The notes under the pieces were generated by a model. That model searched no databases. It had not been told where the DNA came from and saw nothing but the letters and a program-made list of their open reading frames with translations. From the NCBI RefSeq assembly GCF_003018235.1, contig NZ_CP027437.1: a stretch of DNA of 64,000 nt; one strand, given 5' to 3'. Shown here piece by piece: positions 1,389 through 51,028 of the stretch. The number at the start of each line of letters is the position of its first letter. Positions within the stretch are counted from its first letter, which is position 1. Made by a program: the position numbers and the translations under genes. The DNA is from Escherichia coli. Lineage in GTDB: Bacteria > Pseudomonadota > Gammaproteobacteria > Enterobacterales > Enterobacteriaceae.

Positions 1389-1592
1389 TCACTCTTTATG
1401 AGAGAGCTTTTCAGCCTGAAGATCAACGTCTGCGCCTTTTTTCGCCGCAGCATCGTCATCATTCATCGCCTTCTTGAACCCTTTAATGGCCGCTCCAAGG
1501 TCTCCGCCCAGCGTACGTAACTTCTTAGTCCCAAACAGCAGAACGACCAGCGCCGCAACTACCAGCAGTTTGGTAATACTAATCTCACCCAT
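1389..1592 (-). CDS. tatE: Twin-arginine translocase subunit TatE
   Basis: 67-aa [29 protein letters not shown]... typical TatA/E family. Confidence 0.93.
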
Positions 1593-1720: not shown

Positions 1721-2515
1721 TCATAATAATTGCGGCGGCGCAAAGCGACGGTTGTTTAAGACGGGCAGTTGCGCGCGCACCTGACGCACACGTTCGGGCG
1801 TCACTTCCGCCATAATGAGTGCAGGCATTTCTGACGCTGCCGCAATGGTGACGCCAAAGGGATCTATAATCCGGCTTTGCCCGATATTTTTGTTCCCGCA
1901 CTCCCCCGCCGCCACCATATAACAGGTGGTATCCAGCGCACGAGCGGCAAGCAACGTTGACCAGTGATGCTCTTTGAGCGGCCCGCGAACCCAGGCGGCA
2001 GGAAGTACCAGGATTTCAGCTCCCTGTAATGCCTGTGCCAGCGCCAGCTCTGGAAAGCGTAAGTCATAACAGGTCATCAGACCGACCTTCATCCCTTCCA
2101 CCTCCAGTAACGGAGCTATTTCATTACCAGCATCAACATGGCGTGATTCCTGAATGGCAAATGCATCATAGAGATGCAGTTTGGCATAACGGGCGACGAT
2201 GTTTCCTGCCTGAAGTGCCACCAGCATATTCCATGCGCGCCCCGGCGTTGAAGGAACATGAATCGTCAGAATTGTCGTCATCATGTTACGTTTACTTTCT
2301 CGCCGTAAACGTCCGAGGAATTCGCCTTCCAGCAGCTGCGCTGATTTAACCGATAGATCTGCATCATGATCATCACGCGCCAACAATGCTTCCGGCAGGA
2401 CAAACAGCGAAACGTCGTTTTCCGCCGCCTGCGCCATCAACGAGGCACAAATCTCAGCGTTCTTTTCCCACACAGATGTAACAGCAAACTGTCCTGCGGC
2501 AACCAGCATTGCCAC
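1721..2515 (-). CDS. ybeM: C-N hydrolase (nitrilase superfamily) amidase, apparently intact
   Basis: Uninterrupted 264-aa ORF with nitrilase-fold features; position between tatE and crcB. Confidence 0.85.
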
Positions 2516-2604
2516 CTCCTCCTGTCAGAGTCGTAAAATTCGCCAACGGCGATTATTCGGCGTTACACTTATCACTCATACAAATCAAATAGCAGGATTT
2601 TGCA

Positions 2605-2988
2605 GTGTTACAACTTCTTTTAGCAGTTTTTATTGGCGGTGGTACGGGAAGCGTGGCGAGATGGCTGTTAAGTATGCGATTTAACCCGCTGCATCAAGCG
2701 ATTCCGTTGGGGACGCTGGCTGCAAACCTGATTGGGGCATTCATCATAGGAATGGGATTCGCCTGGTTTAGCAGGATGACGAACATTGATCCAGTGTGGA
2801 AAGTATTAATCACCACCGGATTTTGTGGCGGTCTAACAACCTTCTCAACATTTTCGGCAGAAGTGGTGTTTTTGTTACAAGAGGGCCGCTTTGGCTGGGC
2901 GTTACTGAACGTTTTCGTCAACCTTTTGGGGTCTTTTGCCATGACCGCACTGGCTTTCTGGCTGTTTTCCGCCTCAACCGCACACTAA
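2605..2988 (+). CDS. crcB: Fluoride ion channel CrcB (Fluc)
   Basis: 127-aa hydrophobic ORF starting at GTG; matches CrcB. Confidence 0.93.
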
Positions 2989-2993
2989 AGACC

Positions 2994-3024
2994 AAAAAAA
3001 ACCCGCTGATTAAGCGGGTTTTGA
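2994..3024. terminator. Bidirectional terminator between convergent crcB and cspE
   Basis: aaaaaaa-acccgctgattaagcgggtt-ttg hairpin. Confidence 0.6.
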
Positions 3025-3041
3025 ATTCTTGCTGACGTATC

Positions 3042-3251
3042 TTACAGAGCGATTACGTTTGCAGCAGAAGGGCCTTTGGCACCGTTAGTGATTTCGAACT
3101 CTACGCGCTGACCTTCAGCAAGAGTTTTAAAACCATTAGTCTGGATTGCAGAGAAGTGTACGAACACGTCTTTGCTGCCGTCTTCCGGAGTAATGAAACC
3201 GAATCCTTTGGACTCATTAAACCACTTAACGTTACCTTTAATCTTAGACAT
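3042..3251 (-). CDS. cspE: Cold-shock-domain protein CspE
   Basis: ORF-track entry 3042..3335 trimmed to the ATG giving the 69-aa [20 protein letters not shown]... CspE sequence. Confidence 0.95.
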
Positions 3252-3425
3252 CAAAATTACCTTTACATGAAAAATAGACACAAATGCTGTGTCGGTTACC
3301 AGTACACCAATTGTGGTACGCTTTGTCCAGTGCAACTTTACTAAAAAGTGATAAAAGTCGCGTTATTTTTGATGTTAATTATTTTACTCATTGATTTTAA
3401 AGAGTTTACTAAAATTTCATTTGTC

Positions 3426-16349: not shown

Positions 16350-16496
16350 TCCTCTGATTTACAAAACACGCTAATTCGTCTTCCATAAACCATGACGATT
16401 AAGATTTATACATAATGCGCTACATTGAGGAATTCCCTGAATGTGACGCAAATCACTTCAAAGAGTGAGCAACAGTCAGTATCATCATGTGAGTTA

Positions 16497-16530
16497 AACC
16501 CTCGCCGCCTGACGGTGAGGGTTTTCTTTT
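16497..16530 (+). terminator. Probable terminator downstream of rna
   Basis: aaccctcgccgcctgacggtgagggtt hairpin followed by ttctttt. Confidence 0.45.
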
Positions 16531-16578
16531 GGGTATGTTTATCTGCGACACTCGCAGTACCGACGACATGGAGTAAAA

Positions 16579-49437: not shown

Positions 49438-49590
49438 CTACTTCTTCGGTTCGTAAGCGAGAACAGCCTTAAACTCAATATTACGTTCCTTCACCGTAAA
49501 CTCACACAGCGAGTCGCGGACCAGAAGCGTAAATCCCAGCACCGTTAAACACAGCACTATGACTGCCACAAGGGCATATTTCGTCAGCAT
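49438..49590 (-). CDS. Hok-family membrane toxin, copy 1 (in-frame Mok extension from the ATG at 49626)
   Basis: 50-aa [50 protein letters not shown]; GGAGG Shine-Dalgarno lies inside the upstream mok frame ([12 protein letters not shown]). Confidence 0.8.
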
Positions 49591-49624
49591 GTTTATATTG
49601 CCTCCATGCGAAGAAGGGACTACC

Positions 49625-49692
49625 ATCCGAGTTGTTGAGGTTCGGAGTGGCAGCCCCAGGATTGATAGAAATATCTCCTGGGGCTTCATCTT
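49625..49692 (+). ncRNA. Putative Sok-like antisense RNA, copy 1 (boundaries approximate)
   Basis: Plus-strand hairpin gccccagg-N16-cctggggc followed by ttcatcttt, antisense to the mok initiation region. Confidence 0.3.
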
Positions 49693-49940
49693 TCCAGATC
49701 TCAGAGTTAACCTGAAACCGGAAAGCTTCAGGCACCCGCAGCTATCTTACCTTTCCTCAACAAAATAGCTGTTTATTTATACAGCAAATCCTGTTTCGGA
49801 CTTCTGTTGGCAAAACTGATCATTGCCCTTAAAACGACATCGCCCGCAGCCATTGCTGACCGCGGGCGAAAGTGTAAAACAGGTGCCTTACCACCCTGAC
49901 CTGACAACCGGATATGCGGGGATTGCTCCCCGCACAACGG

Positions 49941-50093
49941 CTACTTCTTCGGTTCGTAAGCGAGAACAGCCCTGAACTCAATATTACGTTCGTTCACCGT
50001 AAACTCACACAGCGAGTCTCCGACCAGAAGCGTAAATCCCAGCACCGTTAAACACAGCACTATGACTGCCACAAGGGCATATTTCGTCAGCAT
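49941..50093 (-). CDS. Hok-family membrane toxin, copy 2 (Mok extension from the ATG at 50129)
   Basis: 50-aa [50 protein letters not shown]. Confidence 0.8.
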
Positions 50094-50127
50094 GTTTATA
50101 TTGCCTCCATGCGAAGAAGGGACTACC

Positions 50128-50196
50128 ATCCAAATTGTTCAGGTTTGGGTAGGTAGCCCCAGGGTTGATAGAAATATCGTCCTGGGGCTTCATCTT
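50128..50196 (+). ncRNA. Putative Sok-like antisense RNA, copy 2 (boundaries approximate)
   Basis: Conserved gccccagg...cctggggc hairpin plus U-tract. Confidence 0.3.
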
Positions 50197-50444
50197 TCCA
50201 GACCTCAGAGTTAACCTGAAACCGGAAAGCTTCAGGCACCCGCTGTTATCTTACCCTTCCTCAGCAAAATAGCTGTTTATTTATACAGTGAATCCTGTTT
50301 CGGACTTCTGTTGGCAAAACTGATCATTGCCCTTAAAACGACATCGCCCGCAGCCATTGCTGACCGCGGGCGAAAGTGTAAAACAGGTGCCTTACCACCC
50401 TGACCTGACAACCGGATATGCGGGGATTACTCCCCGCACAACGG

Positions 50445-50597
50445 CTACTTCTTCGGTTCGTAAGCGAGAACAGCCTTAAACTCAATATTACGTTCCTTCA
50501 CCGTAAACTCACACAGCGAGTCTCCGACCAGAAGCGTAAATCCCAGTACCGTCAAACACAGCACTATGACTGCCACAAGGGCATATTTCGTCAGCAT
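50445..50597 (-). CDS. hokE: Hok-family membrane toxin, copy 3 (matches the HokE sequence as I recall it; Mok extension from the ATG at 50633)
   Basis: 50-aa [50 protein letters not shown]. Confidence 0.8.
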
Positions 50598-50631
50598 GTT
50601 TATATTGCCTCCATGCGAAGAAGGGACTACC

Positions 50632-50700
50632 ATCCAAATTGTCTGGTTTGGAGTGGCAGCCCCAGGGTTGATAGAAATATCTCCTGGGGCTTCATCTTTC
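50632..50700 (+). ncRNA. Putative Sok-like antisense RNA, copy 3 (boundaries approximate)
   Basis: Conserved gccccagg...cctggggc hairpin plus U-tract. Confidence 0.3.
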
Positions 50701-51028
50701 CAGACCTCAGAGTAAACCTGAAACCGGAAAGCTTCAGGCACCCGCCGTTATCTTACCCTTCCTCAGCAAAATAGCTGTTTATTTATACAGTGAGTCCTGT
50801 TTCGGACTTCTCACTCCTCATTTGATCAACTGAAGCTGAACCCGTTTTTTTCTGCATGCCTCAATCGTCAAAATTCTTCGCCACCAGCCAGCTCTGCCAT
50901 AACTTGTCACATTGCAAAAGTAGCCAAATTGCTTCAGTCACCATCACCAAAAAAAAGAAACATTCCAGAACTTCCGCATCTCGCCCAGCCGCTCCGACTT
51001 CTATACTGAATAGAAAACGCCAACATAA

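Follow-up and report, generated by a model that had tools for sequence, protein, structure and literature searches.

An intact ybeM gene in Escherichia coli, predicted to encode a deaminated glutathione amidase, and the lineage-wide distribution of its K-12 frameshift

Within the nitrilase superfamily, the relatives of YbeM of E. coli include eukaryotic Nit1, yeast NIT2 and the Nit domain of NitFhit. Nit1 converts deaminated glutathione (dGSH) to alpha-ketoglutarate (2-oxoglutarate) and Cys-Gly, a reaction regarded as metabolite repair (PMC10452834, PMC5714238; both cite Peracchi et al. 2017), and the same conversion of dGSH to 2-oxoglutarate and Cys-Gly is the reaction proposed for YbeM (PMC10452834). 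YbeM and these eukaryotic proteins share an aligned Glu–Lys–Cys triad and can be aligned over nearly their whole length, although the relationship is distant (E-values of 1e-27 to 1e-29) and YbeM is shorter, without the Fhit fusion, the mitochondrial targeting and several of the loop insertions of the yeast enzyme. A separate, paralogous branch is formed by the omega-amidases Nit2 and YafV, which have the fold family and the triad in common with YbeM and act as repair or salvage amidases for the amides of 2-oxo-acids. Among bacteria, the Nit1 homologs of E. coli and of other glutathione-producing species were reportedly found by Peracchi et al. in 2017 to be efficient dGSH amidases.

The closest system of all is E. 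coli YbeM itself, as represented by protein WP_001305561.1 and the family model NF033621, which is the same gene as the open reading frame (ORF) studied here. The frame lies in a 64,000-nucleotide stretch of E. coli DNA, referred to below as the window, and its DNA is 100% identical to that of strain PCN033; nothing substantive separates it from WP_001305561.1, a 264-codon version of the ORF merely beginning two codons further upstream. The K-12 counterpart, b4581, has the same locus and the same orientation to crcB and tatE, but it is without the G at nucleotide 200. Taken as a whole, the evidence makes it very probable that the product of the intact, ancestral ybeM is a thiol amidase of the cytoplasm, belongs to the Nit1 branch and repairs dGSH, and that the loss of this one G kills alleles of the K-12 type. 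The features referred to in the following paragraphs are listed here with their window coordinates:

1389..1592, minus strand: tatE, neighbour flanking ybeM
1721..2509, minus strand: coding region of ybeM (262 codons), closed by the TGA at 1721-1723
2069..2071, minus strand: codon of the predicted nucleophile Cys147, aligned with Cys169 of 1EMS and invariant among orthologs
2180..2182, minus strand: codon of the predicted catalytic Lys110, aligned with Lys127 of 1EMS and invariant among orthologs
2309..2311, minus strand: Arg67 codon (CGT), whose middle G at 2310 is absent in K-12 and in the lineage with the K-12 allele
2390..2392, minus strand: codon of the predicted catalytic Glu40 (general base), aligned with Glu54 of 1EMS and nearly invariant among orthologs
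2513..2515, minus strand: in-frame upstream GTG from which the ORF counts 264 codons; unlikely to be the true start
2515..2523, minus strand: Shine–Dalgarno sequence AGGAGGAGG, separated from the ATG by 5-8 nt, read from the sequence
2605..2988, plus strand: crcB, neighbour flanking ybeM

The ORF listing of the window contains an unbroken minus-strand frame at 1721..2515, which is 264 amino acids long when counted from the GTG; beyond the flanking genes lie lipA, past tatE, and cspE and pagP, past crcB. The preliminary description, which had proposed an uninterrupted nitrilase-superfamily gene of 264 codons between tatE and crcB, was right about the intact frame, its position and, as shown below, its family, whereas the length is likelier to be 262 codons, from the ATG at 2509. 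This ATG, most likely the true start, encodes the methionine at which all of the 262-aa orthologs begin, and RefSeq/PGAP calls the gene as 262 aa in the identical sequence of strain PCN033. We rejected a start at the GTG (2515): BL21 carries GTA there, no start codon lies upstream in frame in the outgroups E. fergusonii, Salmonella and Citrobacter, and the GTG overlaps the Shine–Dalgarno sequence. Directly 5' of the ATG the sequence reads ...ACAGGAGGAGGTGGCA-ATG. Both K-12 and BL21 have AGGAGG as their Shine–Dalgarno sequence, relative to which that of the window contains a 3-nt duplication of GGA, and it is this duplication that explains why match lengths of 1021 nt and 1018 nt are found among strains.

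Upstream of ybeM, a simple scan detected no sigma-70 promoter-like site; the counts from the promoter and terminator scan did not exceed shuffle expectation, and the scan is therefore uninformative. The Rfam search returned no RNA element within or beside ybeM and no fluoride riboswitch upstream of crcB. Elsewhere in the window, Rfam matches include a cspA-type thermoregulator 5' UTR over cspE (2994-3352, minus strand, 123 bits) and an rnk leader (16425-16533, plus strand, 125 bits), both of which are expected in this region of E. coli, as well as three tandem matches to the sok antitoxin RNA (RF01794) on the minus strand at 49582-49737, 50085-50241 and 50589-50743. The sok matches score ~84 bits each at a spacing of ~500 nt, and suggest a triplicated toxin–antitoxin locus of the hok/sok type.

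Membership of the nitrilase superfamily is indicated by a match to the Pfam family CN_hydrolase (PF00795; E=4.3e-41, with 141 bits where the cut-off is 23.2), which takes in positions 2-255 of the 256 in the profile and spans YbeM residues 5-247. At the level of function, the NCBIfam model NF033621 (de_GSH_amidase, deaminated glutathione amidase) gives 451.5 bits, its curated threshold being 355, and the eight other nitrilase-family NCBIfam models all score the window protein well below their own cut-offs, the YafV-type amidohydrolase model NF007757 reaching 61.5 bits against 249. With Pfam and NCBIfam matches of this strength, ybeM is not a chance ORF. Structural relatives were sought by a phmmer search against PDB sequences, in which the best match was the Nit domain of C. 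elegans NitFhit (1EMS, E=1.7e-29) and the second was yeast NIT2 (4H5U, 1.1e-26), with the mouse Nit2 omega-amidase (2W1V, 4.4e-22) ranking behind. Full-length homology to these solved members leads us to expect the alpha-beta-beta-alpha sandwich fold for YbeM.

The residues E40, K110 and C147 of YbeM align with positions 54, 127 and 169 of 1EMS, which we take to be its E54/K127/C169 catalytic triad. In PDB 4HGD, presumably a Cys-to-Ser mutant of yeast NIT2, the column of Cys147 is occupied by Ser. Conservation of the triad was judged on an alignment of Enterobacteriaceae orthologs, with residues numbered from the ATG at 2509; all three residues are present in the window allele and no loss of the triad was seen. 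At residue 124, a column that varies among orthologs, the window allele has His in place of the Arg found in K-12 and in the cluster representative P0002.

For the E. coli enzyme, we infer the substrate from the naming of the NCBIfam model and from the activity reported by Peracchi et al. 2017, and the catalytic steps proposed here are likewise predicted from homology within the superfamily. In this scheme YbeM, as a metabolite-repair enzyme, would hydrolyse dGSH, a useless by-product of transaminases acting on glutathione, to 2-oxoglutarate and cysteinylglycine. With Glu40 as the putative general base, Cys147 would attack the carbonyl of the amide, yielding a thioester that holds the 2-oxoglutaryl moiety, and Cys-Gly would be released; Lys110 may stabilise the tetrahedral intermediate or oxyanion, and catalysis may be assisted by a further Glu, probably Glu121 of the motif IQESR. 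Water would then hydrolyse the thioester acyl-enzyme and free 2-oxoglutarate. Where the codon-67 G is lost, in K-12 and the sublineage with the same allele, the 75-residue product lacks Lys110 and Cys147, and the gene is dead.

The preliminary description had named ybeM of the K-12 reference as a frameshifted pseudogene and had taken the uninterrupted allele to be the ancestral one; annotation and alignment confirm the former, and the latter is supported by intact syntenic orthologs and by the frequency of the intact sequence in E. coli, both described below. The annotation of MG1655 (NC_000913.3) treats ybeM (b4581), which lies between crcB and tatE, as a pseudogene of 788 nt, and in K-12 NCM3722 the gene is flagged as ‘frameshifted’. 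Over 789 nt, pairwise alignment of K-12 with the window showed 9 substitutions and the deletion of a single base (~98.7% identity), so the K-12 allele is not intact. The deleted base is the G at window position 2310, nt 200 from the ATG, by the loss of which GGACGTTTA becomes GGAC-TTTA. The product in K-12 consists of 75 residues, 66 native and 9 aberrant, and retains Glu40; Lys110 and Cys147 are lost, which means that the gene is dead in strains with the deletion.

The rest of the K-12 gene is open in the +2 frame and almost the same as the window allele, a picture typical of a gene inactivated recently by a single hit. Two missense changes, V33A and V37A, at ybeM nt 98 and 110 (window 2412 and 2400), are private to K-12 and, in a multi-strain alignment, absent from wild isolates with the same ybeM deletion. 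They are consistent with relaxed constraint after inactivation, but as two changes only they are not significant. Programmed frameshifting in K-12 ybeM was considered and rejected, as no test supports it and the GGAC-TTTAC context does not resemble a slippery site.

The intact allele is widespread. In PCN033 (NZ_CP006632.1), to which the ybeM region of the window is 100% identical, RefSeq annotates an intact 789-nt CDS as ‘deaminated glutathione amidase’ (WP_001305561.1), and ybeM is also intact in BL21(DE3). The region is 98–99% identical to that of essentially all other E. coli, with a match in 5,424 of 5,426 complete genomes; two genomes are without a match, and two of the matches fall on plasmid records. 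Outside the species, intact orthologs of 262 aa that bear the name deaminated glutathione amidase are found in E. fergusonii (at 83% identity), Citrobacter (80–84%), Salmonella (73%), Leclercia, Kosakonia and Enterobacter. The order crcB–ybeM–tatE–lipA, with a ybeM of 789 nt, is kept in the loci of E. fergusonii, Salmonella and C. amalonaticus, and the alignment of ybeM from E. fergusonii, Salmonella and Citrobacter has no gap at the site of the K-12 deletion. Since these outgroup orthologs are intact at that site, the intact allele is ancestral and the K-12 deletion is derived.

Across comparisons, the Nei-Gojobori dN/dS of the window ybeM ranges from 0.03 to 0.14. Against BL21 there are 10 synonymous differences and 1 non-synonymous difference (dN/dS 0.03), and values against the outgroups lie between 0.05 and 0.11, approximate figures because dS is saturated. 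On these substitution ratios ybeM is under purifying selection. Judged by its sequence, the window allele is probably functional.

The frameshift is lineage-wide, and the K-12 reference is only one of its carriers. Of 5,423 complete genomes, 860 (~16%) contain an exact match to a 61-mer that runs across the deletion of K-12. The matching intact 62-mer is exact in 3,568 of the complete E. coli genomes, the remainder differing by substitutions. Carriers of the deletion include many laboratory derivatives of K-12, together with five wild isolates: one from human stool in Mozambique, one from chicken in China, one from cucumber in Korea, one from bovine mastitis in France and an enterotoxigenic strain (ETEC) from a pig in Belgium. 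In all five, ybeM is annotated as ‘frameshifted’. In the multi-strain alignment, these isolates have the deletion together with 7 of the 9 substitutions of K-12, so the allele is identical by descent; the presence of the deletion in wild isolates with the K-12 haplotype likewise means that it is not a laboratory artefact. Because BL21(DE3) is intact, loss of ybeM marks a sublineage and not every close relative of K-12. With ~16% of complete E. coli genomes lacking a working ybeM, the function is evidently dispensable, at least in that lineage.

Other apparent frameshifts were rejected as independent common alleles. Two clusters of truncated proteins, P0044 (an additional T at nt 152) and P0046 (loss of an A from the A5 run near nt 619), represent either artefacts or very rare alleles: their diagnostic 61-mers are absent from all 5,426 complete genomes, and most of the contigs concerned (L010-L012, L014 and L015) also have a split pagP or lipA, as is typical of error-rich assemblies. 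The ‘frameshifted’ ybeM of strain UTME-9 was set down to assembly error, cspE, crcB and tatE being frameshifted there too. In the O166:H15 strain JNE21-003, an IS21-family element, ISEc62 (istA/istB), is inserted near the 3' end of ybeM (locus L020, 3838-5930), and this is a genuine disruption, independent of the K-12 deletion.

Considering the question of substrate, it is quite improbable that this intact nitrilase-superfamily amidase acts physiologically on something other than dGSH, be it as an omega-amidase for 2-oxoglutaramate and 2-oxosuccinamate, like Nit2 and YafV, or on another small amide. Substrate ranges in the superfamily are promiscuous and hard to predict, and structures of the Nit2 type also match YbeM (2W1V at 4.4e-22 and 1F89 at 6.4e-20), but the top PDB matches belong to the Nit1 branch, and the dGSH amidase model is passed (451.5 against 355 bits) where the YafV-type model is missed by a wide interval (61.5 against 249). 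E. coli YbeM was, moreover, reportedly active on dGSH in the study of Peracchi et al. 2017, which again counts against a different substrate.

That the gene is intact yet silent or decaying in this genome, either unexpressed or carrying an inactivating missense change, strikes us as very improbable indeed. While the simple scan gave no promoter-like site, the Shine–Dalgarno region has its 3-nt duplication and strains of the K-12-type lineage do without the gene, every catalytic residue is present, and the 10 synonymous differences against 1 non-synonymous from BL21 form a pattern of constraint; the duplicated Shine–Dalgarno sequence also keeps the canonical spacing to the ATG. In the uropathogenic (UPEC) strain CFT073, furthermore, ybeM is transcribed and responsive to NO: NsrR ChIP peaks lie at crcB/ybeM in both K-12 and CFT073, and ybeM is down to 0.30-fold in the CFT073 triple (‘3X’) mutant under a physiological source of NO (PMC5320621). 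A further report concerns ybeM of UTI89, of which over-expressed out-of-frame sub-fragments cause filamentation and the full ORF does not (PMC6206680). Neither the NsrR/NO work nor the filamentation work changes the reading of ybeM as an intact gene for a probable dGSH amidase.

An intact ybeM in E. coli is thus a correct and ordinary observation, already known from public annotation (RefSeq PCN033), and what is added to that annotation is that ~16% of complete genomes have the K-12 deletion by descent. It is conceivable, if unlikely, that the K-12-type frameshift is an old loss of single origin in a large natural sublineage and that, should the loss be adaptive or costly, K-12 is a natural knockout that misrepresents the repair of glutathione damage in most E. 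coli. If that were true, the cost might be an accumulation of dGSH or, given NsrR binding at crcB/ybeM, an altered glutathione or NO-stress physiology. Beyond bookkeeping the finding has little importance, although for practical purposes the bookkeeping does count: transfer of the K-12 annotation would mislabel ybeM as a pseudogene in most strains, and K-12, the exception at this locus, is unsuitable as the ‘wild type’ for work on dGSH repair in E. coli.
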